Positions 14,015-63,325 of a DNA stretch of 64,000 bases are shown piece after piece; the stretch's first letter is position 1; each line of letters begins with the position of its first letter. Origin of the DNA: Clostridia bacterium (GTDB taxonomy: Bacteria; Bacillota; Peptococcia; Peptococcales; BICA1-8). Under the pieces are notes generated by a model, which searched no databases, had not been told where the DNA came from, and was given only the letters and a program-made list of their open reading frames with translations. The position numbers and the translations under genes were made by a program. The DNA is taken from positions 24,734 to 88,733 of the forward strand of contig JAAXZE010000030.1 in assembly GCA_012720075.1 (NCBI GenBank), read 5' to 3'.

Positions 14015-14032
14015 AAAAGTCTCCCCAGAATA

Positions 14033-14061
14033 TTGACAGAATAAAATCGTAATATTAAGCT
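14033..14061 (+). promoter_or_regulatory. possible promoter upstream of the C-A-B composite and argS
   Basis: Perfect TTGACA, 17 nt, weak TAAGCT. If real, the argS 5' UTR is about 340 nt of repeat modules. Confidence 0.3.
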
Positions 14062-14094
14062 AAAGGATATTGGATGGCAATTATATAATGTAAT

Positions 14095-14127
14095 AAGGTT
14101 AAGGTTTCACTTCGCTAGGTTAAGGTA
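14095..14127 (+). repeat. Family C block (GGTTAAGG..TTCGCT-TCGCTAGGTTAAGG)
   Basis: AAGGTTAAGGTTTCACTTCGCTAGGTTAAGGTA. Confidence 0.8.
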
Positions 14128-14153
14128 ATTGTGATATTGGGTATACATTAGAC

Positions 14154-14350
14154 AATGTATCCGATGAAAGTAGGTCTTTCGGGATGCATCAGCTTATATG
14201 CAAAATGCATGATGCATCCGATGAACGCCAATTAAAATTGATGCATCCGAAAAATATTACTTAAAAGATGATGCATCCTTTAAGCTAAACCTAGATGCAG
14301 ATGGGTCAGAGATAGTTTAACATTCATGAGATACATCCCAAAAAGTTTCC
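14154..14350 (+). repeat. Family A element, full copy (GATGCATC-rich imperfect palindrome, about 195 bp)
   Basis: Four exact GATGCATC boxes. Ends are inverted: ATGTATCCGATGAAAG at the 5' end, CATTCATGAGATACATCCC at the 3' end. About 88% identical by eye to the inverted copy at 17985-18190. Confidence 0.85.
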
Positions 14351-14358
14351 TTAAACCT

Positions 14359-14394
14359 AGTCACACTTACGCACTAACCCACTTACACACTTAA
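14359..14394 (+). repeat. Family B array (CACACTWA 8-mers) abutting the argS RBS
   Basis: AGTCACACTTACGCACTAACCCACTTACACACTTAA, then AATTGAGGTG and ATG. Confidence 0.8.
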
Positions 14395-14410
14395 TAATTG
14401 AGGTGTTGAA

Positions 14411-16087
14411 ATGAGTATTGTAGAAAAATTAAAAAATAATATCAAAGAGCGGATTATTAATGCCCTTGAATTAAACAGGGCGGAAGGCAAGCTGAATTTT
14501 AGTGAAATTCCCTCTTTTGTTTTGGAGGTTCCCCGGGAAAAGGCCCATGGCGATTTCGCCGCCAATGTTGCCATGCTGATGGCCAAAGAGGCCAAAATGA
14601 ATCCTCGGGCTATAGCCCAATTAATAGTCGACAAACTTTCATTAGAAGGAACCTGGGTGGAAAAGGTTGAAATTGCCGGACCGGGATTTATAAATTTTTA
14701 TTTGGATTTCCGGTGGCTTTATGATGTTTTGCCTTTGGTAGAAGAACAGGACGAGGATTACGGTTCCAGTTATGTAGGGCAAGGAACCAAAGTACAGGTT
14801 GAGTTTGTCAGTGCCAATCCTACCGGTCTCTTACATATGGGAAATGCCCGTGGGGCAGCTTTAGGTGATACTTTGGCCAATCTTTTAAAGAAAGCGGGCT
14901 AATCGGTGACCAAAGAATTATATTTTAATGATGCCGGCAATCAGATAGAAAACTTCGGCAAATCTTTGGAAGCCAGGTTTTTGCAGCAACTAGGATATGA
15001 TGTTCCTTTTCCTGAAGAGGGCTATCATGGGGAAGACATTATCGATACCGTAAAGAGAATTATTGAAAGGGACGGTCGGGTCTATTTAGAAATGGACCCC
15101 GAAGAACGGAGAAAGAAGCTGACTGAAATAGCCCTTGAGGAAAAAATTGCGGCAATAAAAGCCGCTTTGGAAAACTTCGGCGTCATTTATGATGTTTGGT
15201 TCAGTGAGAGTACTTTGCATCAATCAGGGGCCATTGATAAGGTTATTCAAGAATTAAAGGAAAAAGATTTAGTATATGAACATGAGGGGGCCTTGTGGTT
15301 CCGCTCCAGTCGTTTTGGGGCCGATGATAAAGATGAGGTAGTCGTCCGTTCCAACGGAGTGCCTACTTATTTTGCAGCCGATATTGCCTACCATAAAAAC
15401 AAATTTGAGCGGGGATTTGATTGGGTTATCAATATTTGGGGCGCTGACCACCATGGTCATGTTGCCAGGATGAAAGGTGCTTTGGAGGCAGTTGGCTATG
15501 ACCCCGACAAATTAACGGTTATACTGATGCAATTGGTTCGTCTTTTCCGGGGCGGGGATATTGTGAGAATGTCCAAGCGGACCGGCCAGTATGTCACTTT
15601 AACCGAATTGGTTGAAGAAGTAGGCAAAGATGCCGCCAGGTACTTCTTTGTAATGCGCAATCCCGACAGCCACCTGGACTTTGACCTGGATTTGGCTAAA
15701 CAGGAATCTTCGGAAAACCCTGTCTACTATGTTCAATATGCCCATGCCAGGATTTGCAGCATCTTAAAGTCCATAGGCCAAGAACAGCCGATGGCAGCCA
15801 ATACCAGGCTCGATCTTTTAAAAGAACCGGCCGAATTGGAATTGCTTAGAAAAATCGCCGATTTGCCTGATGAAATAGCTCAAGCGGCCAAAGCTTTGGA
15901 ACCCCATCGTATTGCCAGGTATGCCCACGATTTGGCCGGAGCTTTTCATACCTTTTATAACAGTTGTCGTGTACTGACTGATGATCAAGAGTTAAGGGAT
16001 GCCCGGCTGGTATTGGTTAATGCAACCAGGATTACCCTCCGCAACGTCTTAACCCTCTTAGGAGTCAGTGCTCCCGAAAGAATGTAA
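14411..16087 (+). pseudogene. argS: arginine--tRNA ligase interrupted by one in-frame TAA (14900-14902)
   Basis: ORFs 14411..14902 and 14906..16087 share one frame. Junction reads [23 protein letters not shown], where ArgS normally has Gly-Tyr-x-Val. HMGNARG (HIGH) and MSKR (KMSK) motifs are present. Confidence 0.85.
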
Positions 16088-16126
16088 TCTAAAATTTAGC
16101 GAGGTTTGGTAAAATCGTGAACATGG

Positions 16127-16169
16127 AGAGTGTACAAGCTGTTTTCAGTTTGTATACTCTACTTTTTTG
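16127..16169 (+). terminator. intrinsic terminator after argS
   Basis: 11-bp stem AGAGTGTACAA/TTGTATACTCT with one G-T pair, 11-nt loop, then ACTTTTTTG. Confidence 0.7.
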
Positions 16170-16192
16170 TGGTATAAACTAGCTATATATGC

Positions 16193-16221
16193 TTGACAGT
16201 ACAATTGCAGAAAGATAGAAT
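16193..16221 (+). promoter_or_regulatory. sigma-A-type promoter for pyrG
   Basis: TTGACA, 17 nt, TAGAAT. Confidence 0.75.
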
Positions 16222-16226
16222 TGTAA

Positions 16227-17885
<1,659 letters not shown>

Positions 17886-17891
17886 TCTAGG

Positions 17892-17918
17892 CCCTGGAGG
17901 AATTTTCTCCGGGGTTTT
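17892..17918 (+). terminator. probable terminator after pyrG
   Basis: Stem CCCTGGAG/CTCCGGGG with one wobble pair, 7-nt loop, TTTT. Confidence 0.5.
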
Positions 17919-17932
17919 CGCTATGTCCATTT

Positions 17933-17980
17933 GTCTGTGAGTGTGTTAGTGTGTAAGTGTGTTAGTGCGTAAGTGCGACT
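17933..17980 (-). repeat. Family B array, inverted
   Basis: The + strand reads GTGTGTTAGTGTGTAAGTGTGTTAGTGCGTAAGTGCGACT, the complement of CACACTWA words. Confidence 0.8.
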
Positions 17981-17984
17981 AGAA

Positions 17985-18190
17985 CTAAGGTAACTTATTA
18001 GGTTGCATCTCATGCATGCGAAATAATCCCTGACGCATCTGCATCTGGGGTTAGCTTAAAGAATGCATCATCTTTTTAGTAATATTTTTCGGATGCATCA
18101 ATTTAAATTGTCATTCATCGGATGCATCATGCATTTTGAGTATAAGCTGATGCATCCCAAAAGACCTATTTTCATCGGATACATCATTTA
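17985..18190 (-). repeat. Family A element, full copy, inverted orientation
   Basis: The reverse complement aligns end to end with 14154-14350, including the internal segment GATGCATCCGAAAAATATTACT.AAAAGATGATGCAT that the other copies lack. Confidence 0.85.
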
Positions 18191-18212
18191 ATGTCGCTTT
18201 CATGTTATTATA

Positions 18213-18316
18213 CTTACCTTAACCTAGCGAAGCGTAATCTAGTCAACGAAGTTGACGTAACCTTTGATCTACCTTTCCAACTCTTCCAACATTCCAACTT
18301 TTCCAACTGAAAATTT
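18213..18316 (-). repeat. Families C and F, inverted (with the B and A copies at 17933-18190 this completes an F-C-A-B composite read on the minus strand)
   Basis: CCTTAACCTAGCGAAGCG...GTCAACGAAGTTGAC, then CCTTTCCAACTCTTCCAACATTCCAACTTTTCCAACTGAAAAT. Confidence 0.8.
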
Positions 18317-18357
18317 GCGTTCTTGATTGAAAGTCTGAAAGGATGGTGGTAGTAATT

Positions 18358-19434: not shown

Positions 19435-19442
19435 AACTGTAT

Positions 19443-19539
19443 AAGATGCATCAGATGAATGTAAGTCTTTAGGGATGCATCTGCTTTTTAGAAAAAAGCA
19501 TGATGCATCCGATGCATGACCGGTAATTTTGATGCATCG
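19443..19539 (+). repeat. Family A element, 5' half only
   Basis: AAGATGCATCAGATGAATGTAAGTCTTTAGGGATGCATCTGC...CATGATGCATCCGATGCATG...TTGATGCATCG, then switches to family E. Confidence 0.75.
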
Positions 19540-19552
19540 ATTATCTACTATT

Positions 19553-19627
19553 TGACATCGTGTCATCGTGTCACAGTGACATCAATTTTTAGTTGGAAAA
19601 GTTAGAATGTCGGAAGAGTTGGAAAGG
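19553..19627 (+). repeat. Family E (GTGACATC/GTGTCATC/GTGTCACA) plus family F (GTTGGAAAA-type) arrays
   Basis: TGACATCGTGTCATCGTGTCACAGTGACATC, then AATTTTTAGTTGGAAAAGTTAGAATGTCGGAAGAGTTGGAAAGG. Confidence 0.8.
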
Positions 19628-19664
19628 AACATATTCTTTGTCATAGAATAATAGATACCTAAAA

Positions 19665-19803
19665 AATAATTCTCAACTCTCCACTCACACACTTAAATGT
19701 TCCAGTCACCAGTCACCAGTCACTAATTGGTAGATTACTGGGCACAGGGCACTGGTCACTTGGCACGGGACAAAAATTTTAACCCAAAAGTTCAGACAAG
19801 CCA
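19665..19803 (+). repeat. Composite G(inverted)-B-H-I upstream of alr
   Basis: AATTCTCAACTCTCCACTC; CACACACTTAA; CCAGTCACCAGTCACCAGTCACTAAT; TACTGGGCACAGGGCACTGGTCACTTGGCACGGGACAAAAATTTTAACCCAAAAG. Confidence 0.8.
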
Positions 19804-23284: not shown

Positions 23285-23346
23285 GGCTACAGTTCCCGTT
23301 CTACAGTGCTAAAGAAAAAAGGTTAAGGTTTCGCTTCGCTAGGTTG
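23285..23346 (+). repeat. Family D (CTACAGTG-type 8-mers) plus family C block
   Basis: GGCTACAGTTCCCGTTCTACAGTGCTAAAG, then AAGGTTAAGGTTTCGCTTCGCTAGGTTG. Confidence 0.8.
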
Positions 23347-23538
23347 TATTCGATAAAAGCAAGTTTTTACAGATGCATCTGCTTTTAAGCAAAATGCATG
23401 ATGAATCCGATGCATGGCAATTTTAATTGATGCATCCCATAAATGTTATCCAAAGATGATGCATCCTTTAAGTTTTACTCGGATGCAGATGCGTCAGGGA
23501 TGGTTCAACATGCATTAGATACAACCCAATAAGTCACT
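23347..23538 (+). repeat. Family A element, full copy
   Basis: CAGATGCATCTGCTTTTAAGCAAAATGCATGATGAATCCGATGCATGGCAATTTTAATTGATGCATCCC...GGATGCAGATGCGTCAGGGATG...CATGCATTAGATACAACCCAATAAGTCAC. Confidence 0.85.
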
Positions 23539-23546
23539 TGAAACAA

Positions 23547-23603
23547 AGCCACACTTACACGCTATCACACTTAATTTACTAGTCACCAGTCACTAATCAC
23601 TAA
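23547..23603 (+). repeat. Family B plus family H (CAGTCAC 7-mers) abutting the tal RBS
   Basis: AGCCACACTTACACGCTATCACACTTAA, then CTAGTCACCAGTCACTAATCACTAA, then ATGGGAGG. Confidence 0.8.
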
Positions 23604-24272: not shown

Positions 24273-24446
24273 TTAGGTTAAGGTTGTTGAGGTTAAGATA
24301 TATTGTAGTTCTGCGGTGCTACATTTCTACAGAAAGAATTAATTTAGATTAAAGGTTGGAGATTTCGCTCACTTTGTTCGCAAGCTTTTGCTTCGCTGGA
24401 TTTAAGTTTTCGACGCCACGGCGTCATGGTGACAAGATGACACGTC
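24273..24446 (+). repeat. Composite C-D-C'-E, paralogous to 38322-38520
   Basis: TTAGGTTAAGGTTGTTGAGGTTAAG; TTGTAGTTCTGCGGTGCTACATTTCTACAGAAAGAATTAATTT; GAGATTTCGCTCACTTTGTTCGCAAGCTTTTGCTTCGCTGGATTTAAG; GACGCCACGGCGTCATGGTGACAAGATGACACG. Confidence 0.8.
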
Positions 24447-24485
24447 TTTATCAGGCGCAAAATTTATATCAATAATAATAGTCTA

Positions 24486-24565
24486 TTCACTGGGCACAGG
24501 GCACAAGACCAAAAGTCTGGCCCTAAAGTACAAACATGTGCAGTCATTAGTCGCTTGTCACTAAT
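24486..24565 (+). repeat. Family I plus family H upstream of glpX
   Basis: TTCACTGGGCACAGGGCACAAGACCAAAAGTCTGGCCCTAAAGTACAAACATGTG, then CAGTCATTAGTCGCTTGTCACTAAT. Confidence 0.75.
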
Positions 24566-25561: not shown

Positions 25562-25568
25562 TTTATTA

Positions 25569-25600
25569 ATTGAGAATTGAGAATGGAGAGTTGAGAATTT
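25569..25600 (+). repeat. Family G array (GAGAATT/GAGAATG/GAGAGTT 7-mers)
   Basis: ATTGAGAATTGAGAATGGAGAGTTGAGAATTT. Confidence 0.85.
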
Positions 25601-25630
25601 AATTAAAAAGGAGGGCAAGACGGGGTCTTT

Positions 25631-25665
25631 TCCTGCTTCTTGCCTCCTGCATCTTGCTTCTTGAT
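25631..25665 (+). repeat. Family L array (TCYTGCN 7-mers) in the rho leader
   Basis: TCCTGCT TCTTGCC TCCTGCA TCTTGCT TCTTGAT, ending directly at the rho RBS AGGAGG. Confidence 0.8.
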
Positions 25666-25672
25666 AGGAGGT

Positions 25673-26935
25673 ATGAATGTGGCTTTTACCACCGCAGAGC
25701 TTGAAGCAAAAACCATTGCCGAGCTCTATAAAATAGCCCGTGAAATGGAATTGACGGGCTATTCTAAACTGAGAAAAAAGGAATTAATTTTTGAAATTCA
25801 AAAAGCCAGTACCCAAATGGATGGGCTGCTTCAAGCCCAGGGGGTTTTGGAGATAATGCCGGACGGTTACGGCTTCCTTCGACCTTTCGCGTATTTGCCC
25901 AGCCAGGATGATATCTACATATCGCCTTCCCAAATCCGCAAGTTTGACCTGAGAACCGGTGACAGGGTAGCGGGACTTGCCCGTAAACCTAAAGAAGGTG
26001 AGCGATATTTCGCGCTGCTGCGTGTAGAAGATGTTAACGGTGAACCTCCTGACAAATCTCCCGAGCGTTTGCATTTCGATGGTCTTACCCCCATTTATCC
26101 CCTTGAAAAACTCCACCTGGAAACTGATAACGACAGCATCTCACCGAGAATAATCGATCTTATCTCCCCTGTAGGCAAAGGACAAAGAGGGCTTATAGTG
26201 GCGCCGCCCAAAGCGGGAAAAACAGTACTTTTAAAGGAAATTGCCAACAGTATTTCTATAAACCATCCCGAGATTGAGATCTTAATTCTGTTAATCGATG
26301 AACGCCCGGAAGAAGTAACCGATATGCAGCGTTCTGTCAAAGGGGAGGTAATTAGTTCCACTTTTGATGAACCGCCGGAAAACCATGTAAAAGTGGCGGA
26401 AATGGTTTTGGAAAGGGCCAAGAGGCTGGTTGAGCATAAAAGAGATGTGGTAATCCTGATGGATAGCATTACAAGACTTGCCCGTGCCTATAATTTGGTA
26501 ATTCCTCCCAGTGGACGAACCTTATCGGGGGGAGTTGACCCCAGCGCCCTGCATAAACCCAAGCGTTTTTTTGGCGCTGCTCGGAATGTTGAGGAAGGGG
26601 GCAGTCTTACTATCCTTGCTACAGCTTTAGTGGATACCGGCAGCAGGATGGATGATGTAATTTTTGAGGAGTTTAAAGGAACCGGCAATATGGAGCTGAT
26701 TTTGGACAGAAAACTGGCTGAAAGAAGAATTTTCCCTGCCATAGATATCAAAAGATCAGGCACAAGAAAGGAAGAGTTGCTCCTCTCCAAAGAAGAGCTA
26801 ACTTTTGTCTGGCAGTTTAGGAAAACCTTTAGCAACTCCGATACGGTAGAAGTTGCGGAAATGCTGATTGATGCCTTGAAAAAGGGGAAAACCAACAAAG
26901 ATTTGGTTCGAGCCTGGCCTAAGCTGATGAAGTAG
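25673..26935 (+). CDS. rho: transcription termination factor Rho
   Basis: GYGFLR RNA-binding domain and Walker A PPKAGKT. Start is ATG 25673 or GTG 25679; the latter is better spaced from AGGAGG. Confidence 0.95.
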
Positions 26936-26946: not shown

Positions 26947-27078
26947 TTTGGGTGAAAATTATGGGTCGGCAGTAAATCTTCCGTGTAAAGTTCCGAGGTC
27001 AGTGTGACGGCTTACGGGTCAGGCTTTTGGGACGGTGTGACGTCTTCCGGGATAGTCTCACGGTCGGTCTTGGACACC
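26947..27078 (+). repeat. Family J array (core GGTCRGYRTGACGKCTTAC), left-arm orientation
   Basis: GGGTCGGCAGTAAATCTTCC..GAGGTCAGTGTGACGGCTTACGGGTCAGGCTTTTGGGACGGTGTGACGTCTTCCGGGATAGTCTCACGGTCGGTCTTGG. Confidence 0.7.
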
Positions 27079-28140: not shown

Positions 28141-28252
28141 ATGAATGCCATTTTTTATTGATGCATCCGATGAAATCGGTCTCTTGGGATGCATCTACTA
28201 TTTAGTGATACTGAATGATGCATCCGATGAATGATAATTTTTTGGATGCATC
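28141..28252 (+). repeat. Family A element, rearranged partial copy
   Basis: Four GATGCATC boxes. Starts with the central box (ATGAATGCCATTTTTTATTGATGCATCC) followed by the 5' box. Confidence 0.7.
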
Positions 28253-28271
28253 TTACTAAAGAAGTTATCAT

Positions 28272-28331
28272 TGTACACTCATACACTAAAACACTTACAC
28301 ACTTAAGCACTAACATACTATCACACCAAAC
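28272..28331 (+). repeat. Family B array upstream of the radical-SAM gene
   Basis: TGTACACTCATACACTAAAACACTTACACACTTAAGCACTAACATACTATCACACCAAAC. Only a few G on the + strand. Confidence 0.8.
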
Positions 28332-29607: not shown

Positions 29608-29960
29608 GGGATGGCATTATGGCTTTGGGGTTAAAGAATCGGTCTGCTTGACGGCTAAAAGACCAATTTTTCTGGACCGCATGACGTCTTCTAAGCAAAA
29701 TTATAGGTCAGCATGACGTCTGCCGGGAAAACTTTTCCGTCAGCTTTTGTAATTCATTAAAATTAGATTTTTCGGTCGCTTCTTCCCCGGATAGCACACT
29801 GTTAACTGTATAAATTAAGGACCGACCCAGGGAATTAGCCTATAAGACGTCACACCGTCCTGCATTTTAACCCCAGAGCCGTCACACCGACCAAAAATTT
29901 AACCCGTAAGCCGTCATACCGACCTAAAAAATAACCCGAAAGGCATAATATCGGCCTGCA
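29608..29960. repeat. Family J inverted array (left arm about 29608-29745, right arm about 29815-29960; right arm has a 32-33 bp period)
   Basis: Left arm: TTGACGGCT, CGCATGACGTCTTCT, GGTCAGCATGACGTCTGCC. Right arm: GACGTCACACCGTCC..., then GTCACACCGACCAAAAATTTAACCCGTAAGCC, GTCATACCGACCTAAAAAATAACCCGAAAGGC and ATAATATCGGCCTGCAAAATAACCC, with cores at 29848, 29881, 29913 and 29945. Confidence 0.8.
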
Positions 29961-29992
29961 AAATAACCCATATAGGCCATAAGCACTCCCTC

Positions 29993-30021
29993 TTGACTCA
30001 TAAAAATAAAGAATATATAAT
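29993..30021 (+). promoter_or_regulatory. sigma-A-type promoter for rpmE
   Basis: TTGACT, 17 nt, TATAAT. Lies immediately downstream of the family J right arm. Confidence 0.8.
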
Positions 30022-30062
30022 GTAATAAGTGTTTTGATACCGATGGAAAGAGGTGAACCCGA

Positions 30063-30263
30063 ATGAAAGAAAATATTCATCCAAAATATGGTGTTGCTAA
30101 GGTTATTTGCGCCTGTGGTAATGAATTTGAAACCGGCTCTACTAAAAAGGAGTTAAGGGTTGAAATTTGTTCCAAGTGTCACCCTTATTTTACAGGAAAA
30201 CAGCGTACTGTTGCAGCTGCCGGTCGGGTAGAAGCATTTAAGAAAAAACATGGCATTCAATAA
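30063..30263 (+). CDS. rpmE: 50S ribosomal protein L31
   Basis: [10 protein letters not shown]-terminus with CxC..CxxCH zinc motif. Strong promoter and terminator. Confidence 0.95.
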
Positions 30264-31268: not shown

Positions 31269-31540
31269 CCATGGATCACTTTTTTATGGCTTTAATAGTG
31301 GGAATAGGCATAGTAATTTTTGCTATGATGTTTCGTGTTTTTCAGGGACCCAGTGTCTATGACAGATTAAATGGTCTGGGAGTAATCGGTGCCGACACAA
31401 TACTGTTGCTAATTCTCATTGGTTTTATTGACAAGCGCCCCGATATGTATGCCGATATATCTATTTCGTATGCCATATTGGGTTTTATCAGCTTAGTTGT
31501 CATAGCTAAATATGTTGGAAGGAAGGGGGATGCGGAATGA
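31265..31540 (+). CDS. mnhF: antiporter subunit F (MrpF/MnhF)
   Basis: 91-aa three-helix membrane protein. Overlapping starts and stops suggest translational coupling. Confidence 0.7.
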   Translation: MTMDHFFMALIVGIGIVIFAMMFRVFQGPSVYDRLNGLGVIGADTILLLILIGFIDKRPDMYADISISYAILGFISLVVIAKYVGRKGDAE

Positions 31541-31839
31541 TTAGCACTATTATTGCTATAATTTTTCTTTTGGCAGGTTTTTTCTTTATAGCCGTAGCTG
31601 CCATTGGAGTCCTACGCCTTCCGGATTTTTATTCCCGTTTACACGCCTCAGGTAAAAGTGAAACATTGGGTATGATGCTCTGTTTTACCGGTTTAGCTAT
31701 CTATGAGGGACTCAGTATTACCAGTGTGAAATTTTTGATCATAGCTTTCTTTATACTTTTTGCTAATCCCATTGGTACCCATATTATTTGTCGGGAAGCT
31801 TACAGATCGGGTCTTAAACCGTGGACGAAGGGGGATTAG
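31537..31839 (+). CDS. mnhG: antiporter subunit G (MrpG/MnhG)
   Basis: 100 aa. LRLPDFYSRLHA motif is typical of MnhG. Confidence 0.75.
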   Translation: MISTIIAIIFLLAGFFFIAVAAIGVLRLPDFYSRLHASGKSETLGMMLCFTGLAIYEGLSITSVKFLIIAFFILFANPIGTHIICREAYRSGLKPWTKGD

Positions 31840-31843
31840 GCAA

Positions 31844-32086
31844 ATGCATGTTTTTATTATTGAAACAATTCTCTTGCTATTGTTAATTGCGACCGGTATT
31901 TTTGCTTTAACTTCAAAGGACCTTTTAGCTTCCATCATCCTCTTTGGTGGCTTTAGCTATTTTGCGGTGCTTACCTATTTGATTGTCGGAGCGGCAGACG
32001 TGGCCTTTACCGAGGCAGTGGTTGGCGTCGTTTCAACTATCTATCTGGTCACCGCCCTCAATAAACTTAAGAGGAGGTGCCGCTAA
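31844..32086 (+). CDS. DUF4040 / MrpA-C-terminal-like (MbhD-like) membrane subunit
   Basis: 80-aa hydrophobic product from ATG 31844. The ORF-track start 31760 overlaps mnhG implausibly. Confidence 0.6.
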   Translation: MHVFIIETILLLLLIATGIFALTSKDLLASIILFGGFSYFAVLTYLIVGAADVAFTEAVVGVVSTIYLVTALNKLKRRCR

Positions 32087-32374
32087 ATGAAAAAATATGC
32101 AGCATTGTTAACTATCGCTTTAGCTTTTGTATTTTTTTATGCAGCCGGTGATTTGCCTCAGATAGGAGATAAAGATTCACCTGCCAATGTTCATGTTTCT
32201 CCCAGGTATATCGAAGATGCCATGGAGGAAATCGGTTCACCTAACCTTGTTACCGGTGTTCTGGCTGACTACAGGGGCTATGATACTTTAGGTGAAACTA
32301 CTGTTATCTTTATAGCCGGTATTGCAACCGCTATGATCTTACGGGGCAAAAAGGAAGGTGACGATGCAGAATGA
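32087..32374 (+). CDS. MnhB-related small subunit (MbhE-like)
   Basis: NLVTGVLADYRGYDTLGE motif is typical of the MnhB family. Confidence 0.6.
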   Translation: MKKYAALLTIALAFVFFYAAGDLPQIGDKDSPANVHVSPRYIEDAMEEIGSPNLVTGVLADYRGYDTLGETTVIFIAGIATAMILRGKKEGDDAE

Positions 32375-36177: not shown

Positions 36178-36179
36178 GA

Positions 36180-36416
36180 ATGAGTACTAAAAAAGTAATT
36201 ACTATTGCTTCACTTGTGCTTATACTCTCGATAATTGTAGAAGTACTATTTGTTCACCCCCATGCGGAGTTTTGGTGGCACGAGGTAATCGGCTTTGATA
36301 TGATTTTTGGTTTTTTGGGCTGCCTGCTATTGATAGTAGGAGCCAAGACCTTTGGGAAGGAATTTGTTCAACGGCCTGAAGACTATTACGCAGGAGGTGA
36401 AGAAGACCATGACTAA
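36180..36416 (+). CDS. small membrane protein of the mrp cluster
   Basis: 78 aa, two helices, acidic tail. Its 8-nt overlap with the next gene suggests coupling. Confidence 0.5.
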   Translation: MSTKKVITIASLVLILSIIVEVLFVHPHAEFWWHEVIGFDMIFGFLGCLLLIVGAKTFGKEFVQRPEDYYAGGEEDHD

Positions 36417-38151: not shown

Positions 38152-38165
38152 ATAGCCGTTTTCCC

Positions 38166-38194
38166 TTGCAAAAATTCTAGGCCATGTATATACT
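38166..38194 (+). promoter_or_regulatory. candidate promoter upstream of the prfA repeat composite
   Basis: TTGCAA, 17 nt, TATACT. Lies just after the mrp terminator. Confidence 0.5.
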
Positions 38195-38267
38195 ATAGTT
38201 TAGATATTTATGACCGATCCGCCAGGGTCGGTCATTCTAAATAATGGATTAATGATAAAACACTATA

Positions 38268-38606
38268 TTGTGACACCTAGACATCAATTTTCAGTTGGAA
38301 GGCTTGGAAAAATAGATAATAGTAAGATTAAGGTTTCGCTTCGCTAGGTTGAGGGTAATAAATGTAGTTCCACAGTGCTAAAGTTCTACCGTTCTACAGA
38401 AAGAATTAATTAAGTTTAAAGATTAGAGATTTCGCTCACTTTCGTTCGCTAGTTTCCGCTTCGCTAGATTCAAGCTTTAGATGTCACAGTGTCACAATGA
38501 CACTATGGAACGATGTCACGAAATCCTGGTCACTGGACACGGAACCAAACAATTTAACCTGAGGGTCACTTAAACACTCACACACTTTCAAACTAAAACA
38601 CTTAAC
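38268..38606 (+). repeat. Composite E-F-C-D-C'-E-I-B filling the prfA upstream region
   Basis: TTGTGACACCTAGACATC; AATTTTCAGTTGGAAGGCTTGGAAAAA; GATTAAGGTTTCGCTTCGCTAGGTTGAGGG; TGTAGTTCCACAGTGCTAAAGTTCTACCGTTCTACAG; GAGATTTCGCTCACTTTCGTTCGCTAGTTTCCGCTTCGCTAGATTCAAG; GATGTCACAGTGTCACAATGACAC; CTGGTCACTGGACACGGAACCAAACAATTTAACCTGAG; CACTTAAACACTCACACACTTTCAAACTAAAACACTTAAC. Confidence 0.85.
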
Positions 38607-39709: not shown

Positions 39710-39791
39710 TTAATGGAGAGTTGAGAATTGAGAATGGAGAATTATTAAAAATAATTGAAAGTGGTGAATGGAGAACTGAGAGAGAGTTGAT
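39710..39791 (+). repeat. Family G array (long) between prfA and prmC
   Basis: TTAATGGAGAGTTGAGAATTGAGAATGGAGAATTATT...GTGGTGAATGGAGAACTGAGAGAGAGTTGAT. Confidence 0.85.
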
Positions 39792-39819
39792 ATATAGACC
39801 TTGAGCAATAGCGAAAGGA

Positions 39820-42724: not shown

Positions 42725-42956
42725 AAGTGACATTGTGTCATCGTGCCATCGTGACATCGATTTTCAGTTGGAAAAGTGGGATGTTGGAAGAGTTGGAAAA
42801 GAAGATTAAAGGTTACGTCAACTTCGTTGACTAGTTTTTGCTTCGCTAGGTTGAGGTTGACTAATTGTATTAGGGCAGCGAACAAAAAGCCAGTCACAGG
42901 GCACAAGACCAAAAACATAGCCCAAAAGTACAAACAAGCTCGGTCACCAGTCACAG
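42725..42956 (+). repeat. Composite E-F-C-I-H upstream of mntP
   Basis: AAGTGACATTGTGTCATCGTGCCATCGTGACATCG; ATTTTCAGTTGGAAAAGTGGGATGTTGGAAGAGTTGGAAAAG; AAAGGTTACGTCAACTTCGTTGACTAGTTTTTGCTTCGCTAGGTTGAGG; CAGTCACAGGGCACAAGACCAAAAACATAGCCCAAAAG; GGTCACCAGTCACAG. Confidence 0.85.
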
Positions 42957-43583: not shown

Positions 43584-43630
43584 AGCACACTCAAAAACTT
43601 AAACACTAGCACACTTTTACACTTCATAAC
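43584..43630 (+). repeat. Family B array abutting the ywlE RBS
   Basis: AGCACACTCAAAAACTTAAACACTAGCACACTTTTACACTTCATAAC, then AAGGAGG. Confidence 0.75.
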
Positions 43631-43642
43631 AAGGAGGTATAT

Positions 43643-44722: not shown

Positions 44723-44828
44723 AAAGGTTAAGGTTCCGCTCACTTCGTTTCGCTAGGTTAAGGTAAAAGGTAAACATAATTTTTGGTTACTGAATATTGG
44801 GCACGGTCCCGAAAAATGCCGTCAAAGG
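44723..44828 (+). repeat. Family C block plus a degenerate family I unit
   Basis: AAAGGTTAAGGTTCCGCTCACTTCGTTTCGCTAGGTTAAGGTAAAAGGTAAAC, then GGTTACTGAATATTGGGCACGGTCCCGAAAAATGCCGTCAAAGG. Confidence 0.7.
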
Positions 44829-45412: not shown

Positions 45413-45769
45413 GCGACAGACAACTGCTTCTTGGTTAATTTGTCCCGTCAGACAATTGCTCTTAGGTTTTCATTTTGCGACAGACAATGGCGCTAGGTTA
45501 ACATATTCCGTTAGACAATTTCTACTAGGTTTTAATTTATTCCGTCAGACCATTGCTTAAGGGTTGATTTTTCCGTCTGACAATCTGGTATTTGGTTTGA
45601 AATATGATAACTGTAGAAATATCTGACGGAATAAACAGTCCAAATATTATATCAGACGCAAAAATATGGCAATATAGAAAATCTGACGGAATAGTAAGAC
45701 GTAAGGGTATGTCTGACCTAATAGCAAAGTTTAAAAGCAAAGTCAGACGTAAAAGCTTAACCCAATGAG
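45413..45769. repeat. Family K inverted array: about 5 left-arm units (CGTCAGACAAttgc...) and about 5 right-arm units (cTGACGgaa/caaaa...), period about 30-33 bp
   Basis: Left unit starts near 45413, 45446, 45478, 45509 and 45543. Turn at 45574-45622. Right unit starts near 45623, 45653, 45683, 45713 and 45742. The last unit, GTCAGACGTAAAAGCTTAACCCAATGAG, runs into the glyA RBS. Confidence 0.85.
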
Positions 45770-45790
45770 TAAAAAAAGGAGGATACCATT

Positions 45791-47032: not shown

Positions 47033-47067
47033 TAGTGATATTGTGTCACCGCAACACCGTGACATAG
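47033..47067 (+). repeat. Family E block
   Basis: TAGTGATATTGTGTCACCGCAACACCGTGACATAG, i.e. TGTCAC N9 GTGACA. Confidence 0.7.
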
Positions 47068-47076
47068 AAAGGTAGC

Positions 47077-47250
47077 ATTAACGGATGCATCCGATGAAAG
47101 TAAGCCTTTGAGGATGCATCTGCTTACAAGGAAGATGCATGATGCATCCGATGAATGCCAATTTAAATTGATGCATCCTTTAAGCTATACTCAGATGCAG
47201 ATGCGTCAGGGATGATTTTCATGCATGAGATACAACCCAATAAGTCACCT
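47077..47250 (+). repeat. Family A element, full copy with short internal deletion
   Basis: CGGATGCATCCGATGAAAGTAAGCCTTTGAGGATGCATCTGC...ATGCATGATGCATCCGATGAATGCCAATTTAAATTGATGCATCC...CAGATGCAGATGCGTCAGGGATG...CATGCATGAGATACAACCCAATAAGTCACC. Confidence 0.85.
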
Positions 47251-47254
47251 AAAT

Positions 47255-47276
47255 CCAGTCACACTTAAACACTTTT
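47255..47276 (+). repeat. Family B, short, upstream of upp
   Basis: CCAGTCACACTTAAACACTTTT. Confidence 0.6.
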
Positions 47277-47933: not shown

Positions 47934-47935
47934 CT

Positions 47936-48173
47936 CACGGGTTAATTTTTTGGTCAGCATGACGGCTTAAGGGATATTTATTTGGGTCAGCATGACGGCT
48001 TACCGGTTAAAATGCACGTCAGCGATTAAGTTTTTTATATTAATACTGAAGCTATTCCTTTAAATATCGGGCTGACGGAAAATATAAACCACAGAGACGT
48101 CATGCTGACATTCTGAATAGCTTAGGAGACGTCAGGCGGACCCAAAATGTTAGCCCAGAAGTAAAAACGGGGG
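47936..48173. repeat. Family J inverted array between upp and comEB
   Basis: Left arm: GGTCAGCATGACGGCTTAAGGG (47952) and GGGTCAGCATGACGGCTTACCGG (47984). Right arm: CTGACGGAAAATATAAACC, GACGTCATGCTGAC (48096) and GACGTCAGGCGGACCCAAAATGTTAGCCCAGAAG, which runs into the RBS. Confidence 0.85.
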
Positions 48174-48638: not shown

Positions 48639-48825
48639 TTGTAGTCCTACAGTGCTACAGTTCTACCGTTCTACAGTAAAAAAGGTTGAGGTTTCGCTAC
48701 GCTAGATTAAGGTTGAGAATTCACACTAACACACTAACACACTTAATTATTACTGGGTACTGGTCACTGGACACTGGGCACAAGACCAAAAAAGTTAACA
48801 CATAAGTCCGGCCACCGGTCACTAA
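48639..48825 (+). repeat. Composite D-C-B-I-H upstream of the MazG-like gene
   Basis: TTGTAGTCCTACAGTGCTACAGTTCTACCGTTCTACAG; AAGGTTGAGGTTTCGCTACGCTAGATTAAGGTTGAG; TCACACTAACACACTAACACACTTAA; TACTGGGTACTGGTCACTGGACACTGGGCACAAGACCAAAAAAGTTAACACATAAG; CCGGTCACTAA. Confidence 0.85.
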
Positions 48826-49200: not shown

Positions 49201-49347
49201 AGATTGAAGATTAAGATTTCGCCAACTTTGTCGGCTAGTTTACGCTTCGCTAGGTTGAGGTTGAGAACTTAAATAATTCTCAACTCTCCATTCTCAATTC
49301 TCAATTAATCTTAAGCACTTACACACTAACACACTCACACACTAAAA
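49201..49347 (+). repeat. Composite C-G(inverted)-B upstream of wecB
   Basis: GATTAAGATTTCGCCAACTTTGTCGGCTAGTTTACGCTTCGCTAGGTTGAGGTTGAG; AATTCTCAACTCTCCATTCTCAATTCTCAATT; CTTAAGCACTTACACACTAACACACTCACACACTAAAA. Confidence 0.85.
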
Positions 49348-51968: not shown

Positions 51969-52008
51969 TATTGCAATACCAGTAATAGTTTTGACTGCAA
52001 TTTGATAA

Positions 52009-52263
<255 letters not shown>

Positions 52264-52281
52264 GGTAAAAGGGCCTAGGGC

Positions 52282-52308
52282 AGGCGATTGGAGCTTTTCC
52301 AATCGCCT
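52282..52308 (+). promoter_or_regulatory. stable hairpin between atpE and atpF (no T-run)
   Basis: Perfect 10-bp stem AGGCGATTGG/CCAATCGCCT with a 7-nt loop. Candidate mRNA-stabilising or processing element. Confidence 0.5.
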
Positions 52309-52349
52309 CCGTGATATTTTAAAGCCCGGTAACGAGAGGGGGTCAATTA

Positions 52350-55908: not shown

Positions 55909-57394
<1,486 letters not shown>

Positions 57395-57397
57395 AGC

Positions 57398-57865: not shown

Positions 57866-57950
57866 AATTGCTTATTGTGCTAAGCAATTAGCCTAAAACA
57901 GATACACCGCAGTCTATATATATAGACTGCGGTATATCTGTTTTAGGTTT
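57866..57950 (+). terminator. tandem hairpins after atpC (9-bp stem, then a 56-bp near-perfect palindrome)
   Basis: AATTGCTTA/TAAGCAATT at 57866-57889. CCTAAAACAGATACACCGCAGTCTATAT / ATATAGACTGCGGTATATCTGTTTTAGG at 57892-57947 with one mismatch, then TTT. Confidence 0.55.
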
Positions 57951-57985
57951 AAAACCAATACTAATTATATAAATAAAAAACAAAA

Positions 57986-58107
57986 GGCTGACGGAAAATG
58001 AAACCAATTAGCCGTCATGCAGACCCCAAAAATGGCTTCCAAGTTGTCATGCGGACTTGAAAAGTTTGCGTGAAAGCCGTCATGCCGACCCCATAATAAC
58101 CCGAAAG
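57986..58107 (+). repeat. Family J right-arm array (4 units) upstream of the yueI-like gene
   Basis: GGCTGACGGAAAATGAAACCAATTAG / CCGTCATGCAGACCCCAAAAATGGCTTCCAAGTT / GTCATGCGGACTTGAAAAGTTTGCGTGAAAG / CCGTCATGCCGACCCCATAATAACCCGAAAG. Confidence 0.8.
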
Positions 58108-58124
58108 AAATATGGGAGGATACA

Positions 58125-58487
58125 ATGGAAAAATCCGAACTGGAGAAATTTTTAGAAGTAGGAATTCATGGAACCCCTGAACTAAAAAGTGAAGAAAAAA
58201 AGATTTATCTCGGGTGCTTCCGGGAAAGGATTCTTAAGGTTCTAACCAAGAAGCAAGTGACGGAGAAAGGAACATATAAAGAAATTTTAGACGCCATTCG
58301 GGACAAGCGGGCTAAAAGACTGATTGTTTCCAATGACGTTCAGCTTTCGTCCGCCATGGATTATATAAACCTTGCAAAAGATAACGGTTTGGAATTTACG
58401 CTGGTAGACGGTGATGATTATACCGGTGATATTGGCTTGGTGGTTGTCAGTGATACTGCGGTGGATGAAGAAAACATTTTTGTCTAA
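58125..58487 (+). CDS. YueI-like (DUF1694) protein
   Basis: 120 aa. FLEVGIHGTPELKSEEKK..LG.FRERI pattern is recalled from the DUF1694 family. Confidence 0.55.
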   Translation: MEKSELEKFLEVGIHGTPELKSEEKKIYLGCFRERILKVLTKKQVTEKGTYKEILDAIRDKRAKRLIVSNDVQLSSAMDYINLAKDNGLEFTLVDGDDYTGDIGLVVVSDTAVDEENIFV

Positions 58488-58501
58488 TAGGTTAAAGTTT
58501 T

Positions 58502-58848
58502 CCGACAGATAATTACTCTGGGGTTAAATATCCCGTCAGACAACTGCATTTGCTTAAAGTTATCGGGACAGACATGGCTAAAGGGTCAAACTCTTGCGTC
58601 TGACAAGGCTTCTTCGCAGATAATTACTTGTCAGACCCAAAATGTTCACTGAGCAGTAAGTTAGACGGAAAAGTAGTTATATTTTTTTGTTAGACGCGAA
58701 AATAAAACCTGTCAGTCAATGTCAGACCCAATATGTTAACCGTAAAGGTAAATGTCAGACGCAAAAGCTAAACCTATAAGTCAAATCTGACTAAATATAA
58801 TAATCATAAAGTATTTATCTGACGCAAAATCTAAACCCACAAGTACCC
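58502..58848. repeat. Family K inverted array (about 3-4 left-arm units, 7 right-arm units) between convergent genes
   Basis: Left arm: CCGACAGATAATT.., CCGTCAGACAACTGC.., GGGACAGACATGGC.. . Turn: CGTCTGACAAGG. Right unit starts near 58630, 58662, 58691, 58721, 58754, 58787 and 58819, e.g. GTCAGACCCAATATGTTAACCGTAAAGGTAAAT. Confidence 0.85.
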
Positions 58849-60384: not shown

Positions 60385-60570
60385 GGTTCGCACTCCGGTT
60401 TTCTTTTTCGCTTTTCCAATACCAACCTCTGTTTTGCTTGCTGCTATCGGTAATATTAACACATTTTTTTCTTTGTACGCACCGTTTAATTCCAATAAAG
60501 TAATTATAATAAATAGTCTGCCCTTTTTCTATTAGATTTTGAATAATATAGCAATTAATGGAAAGAATAA

Positions 60571-60610
60571 GATAATGGAGAATGGAGAATTGAGAATGGA
60601 GAGTTAAAAG
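60571..60610 (+). repeat. Family G array
   Basis: GATAATGGAGAATGGAGAATTGAGAATGGAGAGTTAAAAG. Confidence 0.85.
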
Positions 60611-60634
60611 ATTTAATTTTGAAGACTGTTAAGG

Positions 60635-61393: not shown

Positions 61394-61443
61394 TAATCGC
61401 ATTTTTCAGGAAGGATTTGGATTGATTTTAACGAATATTATTC

Positions 61444-61472
61444 TTGACATAACCAAGCAAATATCACATACT
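61444..61472 (+). promoter_or_regulatory. candidate promoter upstream of the G-B modules and murA
   Basis: TTGACA, 17 nt, CATACT. Confidence 0.4.
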
Positions 61473-61494
61473 TATCACGAATGCCAATTCTTAA

Positions 61495-61573
61495 AATAAT
61501 TGAGAATTGGAGAGTTGAGAATGGAGAATTCCAATTTCTATACACTAACTCACTTAAACACTCACACACTAAT
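61495..61573 (+). repeat. Family G plus family B upstream of murA
   Basis: AATAATTGAGAATTGGAGAGTTGAGAATGGAGAATTCC, then TATACACTAACTCACTTAAACACTCACACACTAAT. Confidence 0.85.
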
Positions 61574-61643
61574 ATTAGGGAAGGAGGTGCAACCTGTAGC
61601 AAAACCATTCATTTTTTGCGGGTTTTGTAAGCAGGAATAATTA

Positions 61644-62894
61644 TTGGATAAAATCATCGTTACAGGCGGCGCCAGATTGGAAGGCAAAATTACTATCAGC
61701 GGTGCAAAAAATGCCGTATTACCTATTATTGTGGCCTCATTATTATCCTCCGGAAAATGCAAGATACAAGATGTTCCCCGGTTGGCTGATGTCAGCACAA
61801 TAACAGAAGTTTTGGAGATCTTAGGGGCAAAGGTAATCAGTGAGGGGAACACTTTGGATATAGATAGTAGTAGTGTAAATAATTTTGAAGCCCCTTATGA
61901 GTATGTACGAAAAATGCGTGCCAGTGTTCTCGTAATGGGACCATTATTGGCCCGCATGGGCAAAGTGAAAATTTCCATGCCGGGTGGATGCGCTATAGGC
62001 ACAAGACCCATTGATTTGCATCTGAAAGGTCTGGAGGCATTGGGAGCGACTATTTCCCTGGATCACGGAACTATTGAAGCCCGGGCTGATAAACTGACCG
62101 GAACCAAAATCTACCTTGATTTTCCCAGTGTTGGCGCAACGGAAAACATTATGATGGCAGCTGTTTTAGCCGAAGGTACCACTATTATAGAAAATGCCGC
62201 TGAAGAACCGGAAATAGTTGATTTGGCTAATTTTTTAAACAGCATGGGCGGTAAAGTAAAAGGGGCAGGCACCAATGTCATCAGAATTGAAGGTGTAAAG
62301 GAGTTGGGTGAGACAACCCATACCGTCATTCCAGACAGAATTGAAGCCGGAAGCTATTTGGTTGCCGGGGCTATGACCGGAGGCAATCTGCTTCTCGATA
62401 ATGTTATTATTGATCACCTTAAACCCGTAATTGCCAAGCTCAAAGAGTGCGGTGCCCAAATTTATGAGGAAGGCAATTGTTTGAGGATAATCGGAAGTGA
62501 ACAAATTAAAGCAGTTGATATTAAAACTTTGCCTTATCCGGGCTTTCCTACCGACATGCAGGCTCAGTTTATGGCCCTAATGACTAAAGCCAATGGTACA
62601 AGCCTTATTACCGAAACGGTGTTTGAAAACCGTTTCATGCATGCCGATGAATTAAAAAGAATGGGTGCAGATATTAAAATTGAGGGCAGAAGCGCTGTAG
62701 TAGAAGGAACTAAAAAACTTTACGGTTGTCCGGTCAAAGCTACCGACCTGCGGGCCGGTGCAGCCCTTATTATCGCTGCTTTGGCTGCTGAAGGTGATAC
62801 TGAAATCAACGGTGTTCATCATATCGACCGGGGCTATGAAAATATTGTTGACAAACTGCGCTCGGTAGGAGCAAAAATTGAAAGGATTGACTAA
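61644..62894 (+). CDS. murA: UDP-N-acetylglucosamine 1-carboxyvinyltransferase
   Basis: [11 protein letters not shown], catalytic PGGCAIG and [11 protein letters not shown] motifs. TTG start. Confidence 0.95.
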
Positions 62895-62910
62895 GTAATG
62901 CATGGCATTA

Positions 62911-62980
62911 TTTAGGTTAAGGTTTCGCTGCGCTAGGTTAAGGTTAATATTAACGTGATTTCGTGTTGCCTGTGACATCG
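62911..62980 (+). repeat. Family C block plus family E fragment downstream of murA
   Basis: TTTAGGTTAAGGTTTCGCTGCGCTAGGTTAAGGTTAA, then CGTGATTTCGTGTTGCCTGTGACATCG. Confidence 0.75.
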
Positions 62981-62990
62981 AAAGGAATTA

Positions 62991-63165
62991 TTAAATGATG
63001 CACCCGATGAAAGTTAATCTTTGGAGATGCATCTGCTCTTAAGTAAAATGCATGATGTATCCATTGCATGCCAATTTAAATTGATGCATCCCTTTAAGTA
63101 ATTCCAAGGAGCAGATGCGTCAGGAAATATTTAACATCCATGAGATACATCCCAATAAGTTTACT
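62991..63165 (+). repeat. Family A element, degenerate full copy between the murA stop and its terminator
   Basis: Same box order as the other copies, with point changes (GATGCACC, GATGTATCC). Followed by the intrinsic terminator at 63194-63219. Confidence 0.8.
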
Positions 63166-63193
63166 CAAACCCATTTACTAGTGACAAAAAAAT

Positions 63194-63219
63194 GGCCTAC
63201 TTATGTAGGCCGTTTTTTT
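63194..63219 (+). terminator. intrinsic terminator downstream of murA and the family A element
   Basis: Stem GGCCTAC/GTAGGCC, TTAT loop, then GTTTTTTT. Confidence 0.85.
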
Positions 63220-63325
63220 ATTCTATTTTACGGATTACATTCATAGAATTAATAGACAACCTTAACCAAACCTAGCGAGGTAGAAGGGCAGGTTTCTCTA
63301 CATGCCCTTCTGCCAAGGGAAACCT

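Follow-up and report, generated by a model that had tools for sequence, protein, structure and literature searches.

What fills the long spacers between housekeeping genes is the question raised by a 64,000-nt stretch of contig JAAXZE010000030.1 (assembly GCA_012720075.1, positions 24,734 to 88,733, forward strand), hereafter the window. The window had ~42% G+C and carried nearly every gene on the + strand. Its source is an uncultured "Clostridia bacterium" metagenome-assembled genome (MAG) akin to Clostridiaceae bacterium BRH_c20a and Peptococcaceae bacterium BICA1-8. Its fba protein was identical to one recorded for a "MAG: Clostridia bacterium"; by identity of this protein its kin included BRH_c20a and "Peptococcales" MAGs (88–93%), with Desulfonispora as an outgroup (81%). 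An initial annotation had described the spacers from 14 kb onward as a mosaic of at least 12 degenerate repeat families, lettered A to L. The account we lean towards is that the spacers hold a clade-specific, old and genome-wide population of non-coding modular intergenic repeats, shaped by slippage and by copying and recombination, and tolerated or selected within untranslated regions.

Strict fuzzy mapping recovered 95 merged module hits across the window and none before position 14,000. From 14 kb onward, 25 of the 36 spacers of at least 60 nt contained one or more modules. About 12 recurring families made up these modules, and coding sequence was nearly free of them. As lower bounds, strict hits covered 30% of all spacer bases and 41–65% of those in the main composite spacers. 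A repeat finder returned 33 direct families, including an octamer family with 15 copies, and 32 inverted pairs, while Tandem Repeats Finder (TRF) placed arrays with periods of 7, 8 and 31–32 where the initial annotation had named them. Matches to family consensuses lay far above dinucleotide shuffles of the window (shuffle means in parentheses): A core pattern, 6 (0.00); C, 8 (0.01); B, 20 (0.32); H, 6 (0.04); G, 10 (0.04); I-tail, 6 (0.05); and L, 5 (0.85), the last being a family of one array only. Every composite quoted in the initial annotation was recovered in place (Table 1).

The loosely conserved module order proposed for these composites was also borne out. With C, D, E and F distal, A central and B, H and I proximal, 71 module pairs in the window were concordant and 3 discordant, and all 11 informative spacers were concordant in majority. 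Forward copies outnumbered reverse copies in each family counted in the window: C 16:1, D 13:0, H 6:0, B 27:5, I 12:2 and G 8:2. The inverted composite and the two inverted G arrays that had been named as exceptions were present.

The claim of at least 12 families held in that ~12 recur and failed in that A, J, K and the I-tail share one unit design and are not independent. All four were arrays of ~29–32-nt units with a near-palindromic head word and a AAAAnnTTAACCCnnAAG-like tail. The A element (~250 nt; seven full or partial copies in the window) was an array of ~29-nt units, each opening with the palindrome GATGCATC, and two copies were exactly one unit short. Head words across the design were palindromic or nearly so (GATGCATC, GTCAGAC/GTCnGAC, GACGTC-containing words and ACTAGT). 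In relatives, K units read GTCAGACGCAATATnTTnACCCAnAAGTAnT and recurred strictly every 31 ± 1 nt; an in-register alignment of 55 K units showed a common GTCnGAC head and no internal inverted repeat. In spacers with K or J, a reversed block was followed by a centre and then by a forward block, without strict alternation, and structure in K units arose from the inverted blocks only. Minimum free energy (MFE) z-scores against shuffles were -2.4 to -5.7 for spacers with A or inverted J/K blocks and ~0 for spacers of word arrays only.

Several known kinds of element were rejected on these features. A CRISPR (clustered regularly interspaced short palindromic repeats) array was dismissed, as the ~31-nt units abut one another, are degenerate along their whole length and have a conserved tail as their "spacer" portion. 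A structured cis-regulatory RNA (riboswitch, T-box or leader) was not supported: Rfam gave no hit in the window at the gathering threshold and just sub-threshold terminator-like hits at E<=1, and A showed 0 compensatory pairs (covariation term +4.56). A general hairpin rule for the short-word arrays likewise failed: complementarity was seen in 3.8% of left–right pairs from one spacer and 3.0% of pairs spanning a gene, vs 4.9% of random pairs. Pairing of arrays was limited to J/K/A spacers and to some cases in relatives.

The families were not confined to the window. In four relatives, syntenic spacers were packed with arrays of words and of 31-nt units. Words of the A, H, I, B, D, G and K types recurred at the syntenic loci, and the long spacers of relatives use the same vocabulary and not unrelated unique sequence. 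Among 185,579 species genomes, the C pattern hit 94 8-kb tiles on dozens of contigs, all belonging to 3 MAG species (BRH_c20a, BICA1-8 and one Peptococcales MAG); the A pattern had 0 hits among those genomes and 2 among metagenome contigs. Genome-wide scatter was seen in the MAGs of relatives. No C-pattern hit occurred in viral contigs, plasmids and phages had no similarity to the repeats, and two-unit K matches in viral contigs proved to be unrelated coding repeats. Together with the Rfam result and literature searches on the organisms, accession and repeat terms, which returned no prior description, no match to a known element family was found.

Vocabulary was common to lineages just ~77% identical in coding DNA, while positions turned over. 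Orthologous spacers differed in module content and length (fba–tal: 363, 55, 123 and 294 nt), and the argS and rho leaders of relatives carried different words upstream of the same gene. The femX–alr spacer was filled by K arrays in four lineages. Across the data set there were at least 60 distinct heptamer units, and many start-proximal arrays placed UAG or CAG at 7-nt intervals. Words of its own were present in a closed genome at greater distance (CP045798.1, or L103; fba 81%): (TAGTAAC)7, CAACTAA, CCAACTG, 8-mers and a 100-nt x7 array. This last region (12711–13410) consisted of a ~100-nt unit in seven tandem copies, in each of which complementary G-rich words come after C-rich 8-mer words. 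Desulfonispora, the outgroup, had compact spacers and no arrays.

Could the repeats be an artefact of assembly or binning? The source is a MAG, and two essential genes of the window contain in-frame stops: a TAA in argS (14903–14905), where relatives have a conserved Tyr (KAGYSVT), and a TAA in pyrG (16740–16742), where relatives have a conserved Glu (LPYLEAIRQ). Both genes were intact at the syntenic loci of four relatives, and since both are essential each stop is either a MAG consensus error or genuine decay. Against an artefact, two short same-strain contigs from other samples (L001 and L002) reproduced the spacer at 99.5–99.7% identity to the window; L005, L006 and L009, from ENA, JGI and GenBank, were identical to each other; and equivalent repeats occurred in independent assemblies, a closed genome included. 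Because independent assemblies show the repeats, we treat an artefact as excluded, its probability being negligible. L001 stops at window position 23502, in module A, and L002 at 23311, in module C, as expected if these modules are multi-copy across the genome. Both contigs also carry an additional TTGAA at window 22367/22368, upstream of the fba start codon. These two were the sole contigs obtained for fba, and exact look-ups of three proteins from the window gave no match.

A census of 898 kb, comprising the window and the loci of relatives (ORFs, or open reading frames, making up 81% of bases), placed the arrays in intergenic DNA. Arrays with periods of 6, 7 and 8 numbered 99, 183 and 99 in intergenic DNA vs 31, 23 and 23 in ORFs, and arrays with periods of 30–32 numbered 27 vs 0. 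The C core was found 184 times in intergenic and 5 times in coding sequence, and family motifs in general were nearly all intergenic.

The same-strand orientation that had been proposed as a rule held within the window and did not hold in relatives, where both orientations were about equally common (C, 59:69). Orientation was instead tied to position, the G-rich orientation lying near the left gene and the C-rich orientation near the right gene. Median relative spacer positions of forward and reverse copies were 0.82 and 0.14 for H, 0.72 and 0.36 for K, 0.71 and 0.25 for I, 0.81 and 0.15 for D2 (p = 0.0035), and 0.38 and 0.60 for C; p values for H, K, I and C ranged from 1e-5 to 8e-7. Neither order nor orientation was random. 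Arrays adjoining an upstream stop had G>C in 51 cases and the reverse in 15 (n=66; sense strand G 31%, C 12%), and arrays adjoining a downstream start had C>G in 33 and the reverse in 17 (n=50). This polarity was a property of arrays and families and not of whole spacers, and the rule is symmetric under reverse complementation, so that sequence alone does not allow it to be attributed to the direction of transcription. Pairing did not explain the coupling, since left and right short-word arrays were no more complementary than random pairs. Simple rules (stops in all frames, or avoidance of start codons or Shine-Dalgarno-like words) were contradicted by common families, judged by inspection.

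An enzyme adding templated 6–8-nt repeats to 3' ends at breaks would explain why the G-rich strand always runs from gene to spacer centre, and why left and right arrays are not complementary. Such an enzyme is one form of a wider proposal, a clade-wide "grammar" with an active writer or reader; in its other form, oligomeric DNA- or RNA-binding proteins would read the word and 31-nt unit arrays to set housekeeping expression. We rate this proposal as quite improbable.

The same polarity bears on Rho. In the rho leader (25568–25680), a G array is followed by a Shine-Dalgarno-like decoy (GGAGGGCAAGA), an array of (TCYTGCN)x5 complementary to the decoy, the real Shine-Dalgarno and ATG. The longest rho ORF call (TTG at 25640) starts within the array, placing the true start at ~25674. 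At this place relatives carried different C-rich word arrays. The spacers might act as Rho-dependent insulators, in which transcription into a gene, from whichever side, would first pass through a C-rich, G-poor and unstructured Rho-loading tract; this would limit read-through and antisense transcription and attenuate leaders, that of rho included. Stop-adjacent arrays, being G-rich in the sense strand, are C-rich in antisense, and start-adjacent arrays are C-rich in sense. Word-only spacers were unstructured, a rho gene is present, and its leader in the window holds a C/U-rich heptamer array. In B. subtilis and E. coli, it is established that Rho attenuates its own gene and suppresses antisense RNA. 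However, the skew across whole spacers was weak, several start-proximal families (I, D2 and G) were not G-poor, arrays of 20–40 nt are shorter than typical rut sites, and the argument is drawn from sequence. Rho-dependent insulation seems very unlikely as the explanation.

Differences between species came in whole modules. Over orthologous DNA, BRH_c20a and BICA1-8 were ~90% identical, and their intergenic indels comprised whole words (7, 8, 12, 14 and 24 nt), whole units (31 and 32 nt) and blocks of 89–149 nt. Among strains at 99.5–100% identity, no change in word or unit number was found in a small sample (window vs L001/L002; L003 vs L004 and L115–L118), and phase-variable contingency repeats were set aside on that sample.

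Within the window, the best repeat pair was inverted (14145–14391 vs 17948–18194; 247 nt, 87% identity). Extended to 14102–14391 vs 17948–18240, the copies were 84–87% identical, irregularities of the B array included. The inverted composite at 18 kb was itself a mosaic, with an A-B half resembling the 14-kb copy (87%) and an F-C' half resembling the 42.8-kb copy (88%). Since the 18-kb copy shares the B-array irregularities, composites appear to have been copied and recombined and not regrown locally. Paralogous copies were mostly 70–90% identical, from which the families are taken to be old.

Copies of this kind could have originated from a miniature inverted-repeat transposable element (MITE) or from elements like the repetitive extragenic palindromic (REP) sequences and bacterial interspersed mosaic elements (BIMEs), with inverted 31-nt blocks serving as transposase-binding sites of a non-autonomous element and word arrays as its decayed or slipped remnants. 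K and J blocks keep their reversed block–centre–forward block layout whatever the strand of the flanking gene, with the centre in either orientation; blocks of 89–149 nt were gained or lost between species; copies are confined to intergenic DNA; and metagenome contigs break within modules. On the other side, neither target-site duplications nor defined termini nor an autonomous partner came to light. Inverted blocks are present, but discrete boundaries and duplications were not seen when filled and empty orthologous spacers were compared. The age of the copies, the lack of plasmid, phage or viral-contig hits and the non-complementarity of left and right short-word arrays (3.8% vs 4.9% random) are also at odds with such an origin, which we judge improbable to the same degree as Rho-dependent insulation. 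A MITE with recent near-identical copies was rejected on paralogue identity (mostly 70–90%; best, 87% over 247 nt).

Rates of change separated the two kinds of module. Between BRH_c20a and BICA1-8, identity was 0.749 at 4-fold degenerate sites, 0.779 in tandem arrays, 0.867 in unique intergenic DNA and 0.887 (confidence interval 0.854–0.917, ascertained motif removed) in dispersed non-tandem modules. Word arrays therefore diverge at about the synonymous rate, and dispersed modules are kept well above it.

Conservation of the dispersed modules (0.887 vs 0.749 at 4-fold sites) is in keeping with a cis-regulatory code. Arrays of words or 31-nt units would then be platforms for oligomeric, sequence-specific DNA- or RNA-binding proteins exerting global or combinatorial control of housekeeping genes, on the model of HutP (UAG every 7 nt), TRAP (triplet arrays) or CtsR (heptad direct repeats). 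Consistent with this are the vocabulary common to ~77%-identical lineages, the strict K period of 31 ± 1 nt (~three helical turns), head words resembling dimer binding sites (GATGCATC, GTCnGAC, GACGTC, ACTAGT), the K arrays of femX–alr in four lineages and the 7-nt spacing of UAG or CAG; authors working on the Nostoc and Beggiatoaceae heptamers have likewise suggested a not-yet-identified binding protein. However, the short-word arrays evolve near the synonymous rate (0.779 vs 0.749), the same gene has different words in orthologous spacers (argS and rho leaders), a set of at least 60 distinct heptamer units would call for a large number of readers, no candidate for such a protein was identified, and strains showed no copy-number polymorphism. 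A code of this kind is possible but doubtful.

Where the modules lie relative to gene signals was judged from individually conserved sites and not from a generic scan. The argS promoter (TTGACA-N17-TATTAAT) was conserved in four genomes (window, L003, L005 and L007) and precedes the C-A-B composite in the window. In L005 and L007, modules stood between the argS stop and its conserved terminator, and promoter-like sites preceded the composites at 38.2 kb and 61.4 kb. Several composites thus lie downstream of conserved promoters or before terminators and are probably transcribed. An H array also stands within the atp operon. Housekeeping genes carry modules in their 5' leaders, in their 3' trailers and between cistrons, and the modules would therefore be co-transcribed with them.

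Under the account of an old, clade-specific repeat population, three kinds of repeat would coexist. The first would be minisatellite-like arrays of 6–8-nt words that grow and shrink by whole words through slippage and otherwise drift near-neutrally. The second would be arrays of 29–32-nt units with a near-palindromic head and a AAAAnnTTAACCCnnAAG-like tail, often arranged with a central part between a reversed and a forward block. The third would be composites such as C-A-B (~300 nt), copied between spacers and recombined at shared modules to give the mosaic. Unit arrays, like composites, would have undergone copying and recombination, and both would be conserved. The orientation kept at a given position would be constrained, the G-rich strand running from the flanking gene to the spacer centre and C-rich, G-poor words adjoining the ribosome-binding site. 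This constraint probably stems from selection acting on the transcript or the gene boundary and not from a gene-specific switch; its basis might be an unstructured leader beside the ribosome-binding site, RNA hairpins formed by parts of A, J and K, or possibly C-rich Rho-loading tracts.

Several points weigh against this account. Conservation of dispersed modules, and a vocabulary kept past near-saturated synonymous sites, would fit functional binding sites equally well. The gradient of GC skew across whole spacers was weak (+0.16 to -0.03). A generic promoter and terminator scan of the window was not above shuffles, and transcription is deduced solely from promoter and terminator positions. 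The window held no recent copies (best pair, 87%), and neither a mobilising enzyme nor terminal inverted repeats nor target-site duplications were found, which leaves "copying" without a known mechanism. The window's own species was covered by 64 kb.

Table 1. Repeat composites, arrays and adjoining sites in the window, with the evidence for each.
Feature	Position	Strand	Basis or remark
argS promoter-like site TTGACA-N17-TATTAA	14034..14062	+	read from sequence; upstream of C-A-B
C-A-B composite, argS leader	14097..14391	+	ends 20 nt ahead of start codon
Inverted composite B-A-C'-F, after pyrG terminator	17932..18314	-	repeat pairs, fuzzy map
Partial A-E-F-(inverted G 19668-19686)-B-H-I-tail	19437..19790	+	repeats, TRF, fuzzy map
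D-C-A-B-H, between fba and tal	23293..23600	+	same-strain contigs end within
GGTTAAG words-D-C'-E-I-tail-H-like words, between tal and glpX	24276..24560	+	repeats, fuzzy map
G heptamer array (GAGAATT/GAGAATG/GAGAGTT), rho upstream region	25568..25599	+	TRF, shuffles
L heptamer array (TCYTGCN x5), directly before rho Shine-Dalgarno	25631..25664	+	shuffles
J-type ~32-nt units (GGTCAGTGTGACGGCTTA...)	26997..27068	+	repeats, fuzzy map
Partial A, then B octamer array	28141..28328	+	repeats, TRF, fuzzy map
J units, left block, reversed (orientation set by tail)	29641..29745	-	repeats, fuzzy map
J/tail units, right block, period 32, 3.1 copies	29844..29969	+	TRF; upstream of rpmE promoter at 29993
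E-F-C-D-C'-E-I-B	38255..38606	+	downstream of TTGCAA-N17-TATACT promoter-like site at ~38163-38192
G heptamer arrays	39711..39797	+	repeats, TRF, shuffles
E-F-C'-I-tail-H	42727..42954	+	repeats, fuzzy map
B octamer array before Shine-Dalgarno	43586..43632	+	repeats, fuzzy map
Lone C module, long form	44725..44763	+	shuffles, fuzzy map
K-type left block, ~31-32-nt units, reversed tails	45413..45581	-	repeats, TRF, fuzzy map
K-type right block, ~30-nt units (TCTGACGGAAT..., GTCAGACGTAAAAGCTTAACCC)	45618..45770	+	repeats
E-A-B	47035..47273	+	repeats, fuzzy map; MFE z = -5.4
J units, two inverted blocks (47952-48023, 48093-48147) and tails	47934..48165	.	MFE z = -3.3
D-C-B-I-tail-H	48639..48825	+	repeats, TRF, fuzzy map
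C' (+), inverted G (49275-49309), B (+)	49213..49345	.	repeats, TRF, fuzzy map; inverted G 100% complementary to 25565-25599
H heptamer array in atp operon (atpG-atpD spacer), before Shine-Dalgarno	55925..55955	+	TRF, shuffles
J-type units (GCCGTCATGC.GACCCC..AA)	57980..58110	-	fuzzy map
K-type spacer: reversed-tail units left, forward GTCAGACCCAAAATGTT... units right	58486..58846	.	MFE z = -5.7
G heptamer array	60571..60602	+	TRF, shuffles
G then B arrays	61498..61572	+	downstream of TTGACA promoter-like site near 61440
C-A composite, downstream of gene ending 62894	62915..63170	+	repeats, fuzzy map
			

Some apparent spacers of the window were not repeat spacers. Several of them in an mrp/mnh-like cluster (31269–32370 and 36178–36351), and those at 51969–52349 (atpE) and 30055–30260 (rpmE), held small genes that the 100-aa ORF filter had passed over. 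Downstream of atpC, a loopless 28+28-nt palindrome (57892–57947; 96% complementary) lay outside all repeat families. The his operon of the window contained no modules. In a distant relative, 68–72% identical in its his genes (L105, 1200–1560), an A-like element lay inside the his operon, flanked by complementary arrays, (CAGGAGG/AAGAAGC)n and (GCTTCCT)n.

How do these spacers compare with described repeat systems? The initial annotation had likened them to BIMEs and to cyanobacterial short tandemly repeated repetitive (STRR) sequences, without a described Firmicute counterpart having as many interchangeable modules, and with the amendments above on families and orientation this was supported. 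The STRR heptamer arrays of Nostoc and Microcystis share with the present repeats tandem 7-nt words in several families per genome, intergenic placement (183 period-7 arrays here vs 23 in ORFs), frequent positions beside promoters or start codons or between cistrons, and occasional hairpin formation. Both also show indels in 7-nt steps, between close strains in STRR and between species here. Transcript stability and translational coupling have been proposed as STRR functions. STRR arrays occur in cyanobacteria (heterocystous), whereas those described here belong to uncultured Bacillota/Clostridia; here, 6- and 8-nt words were as common as 7-nt words, and words stood in conserved order alongside arrays of 31-nt units and an element of ~250 nt. 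The STRR1–3 units reportedly given by Mazel and colleagues in 1990 are CCCCAGT, TTGGTCA and CAACAGT. None of the 62 heptamer units here was identical to one of these; ~17 resembled STRR1–3 or GACYAAT at one mismatch (e.g., ACCAGTC, ACTGGGC and ACCAGTG) vs ~8 by chance, and identity with the cyanobacterial heptamers was rejected at this level, no more than about twice chance.

E. coli REP/BIME sequences are intergenic, co-transcribed mosaics of few motif types in alternating orientation and defined order, lying between cistrons or after genes. The ordered intergenic mosaic is common to both, with co-transcription here read from sequence. REP units, however, are imperfect palindromes (20–40 nt) that can form a stem-loop, unlike K and J units, and REP/BIMEs have no short-word arrays and no sequence similarity to these repeats. 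Pneumococcal BOX elements (boxA-boxB(n)-boxC) have a fixed order and a variable number of internal units and lie between genes in either orientation. They too are modular composites of fixed order, but have three modules only, no heptamer or octamer arrays and no shared sequence, as compared via Rfam and not by alignment of the BOX consensus.

In marine Beggiatoaceae, TAACTGA repeats form forward heptamer arrays just upstream of the starts of unrelated genes, housekeeping genes included; their distribution among lineages is sporadic, and an RNA-level role has been suspected (MacGregor, 2015; PMC4679880). TAACTGA is a single word that overlaps and replaces the Shine-Dalgarno, whereas here dozens of words occur and a canonical Shine-Dalgarno follows the array; TAACTGA arrays were absent from the sequences analysed here. 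Long simple sequence repeats (LSSRs) are lineage-enriched arrays of 5–11-nt units, heptamers being commonest, for which slippage was proposed (Mrazek et al., 2007, as summarised in PMC4679880). The LSSR-rich genomes listed in that summary are from Burkholderia, cyanobacteria, actinobacteria and Xanthomonas, with no Firmicutes in the list. Short-unit arrays longer and more frequent than expected by chance are likewise present here, but LSSRs are arrays alone and the spacers of this clade are ordered multi-family mosaics.

Because essential genes (argS, fba, tal, glpX, rho and atp) have the repeats in their leaders and intercistronic spacers, any influence that these exert on transcription, RNA stability or translation would be global. 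They break metagenome assemblies of this subsurface clade and could serve as lineage markers. Such a lineage, with near-neutral word arrays beside conserved dispersed modules, gives comparative leverage on whether repeats of this sort are junk, structural RNA spacers, Rho or insulator tracts, or binding platforms. What is shared with known repeats is a habit, and not the sequences, the taxon or single-family simplicity. The heptamer arrays of cyanobacteria and Beggiatoaceae have stood unexplained for decades; a second, unrelated lineage now joins them with many families, a strict order and a rule coupling position to orientation.

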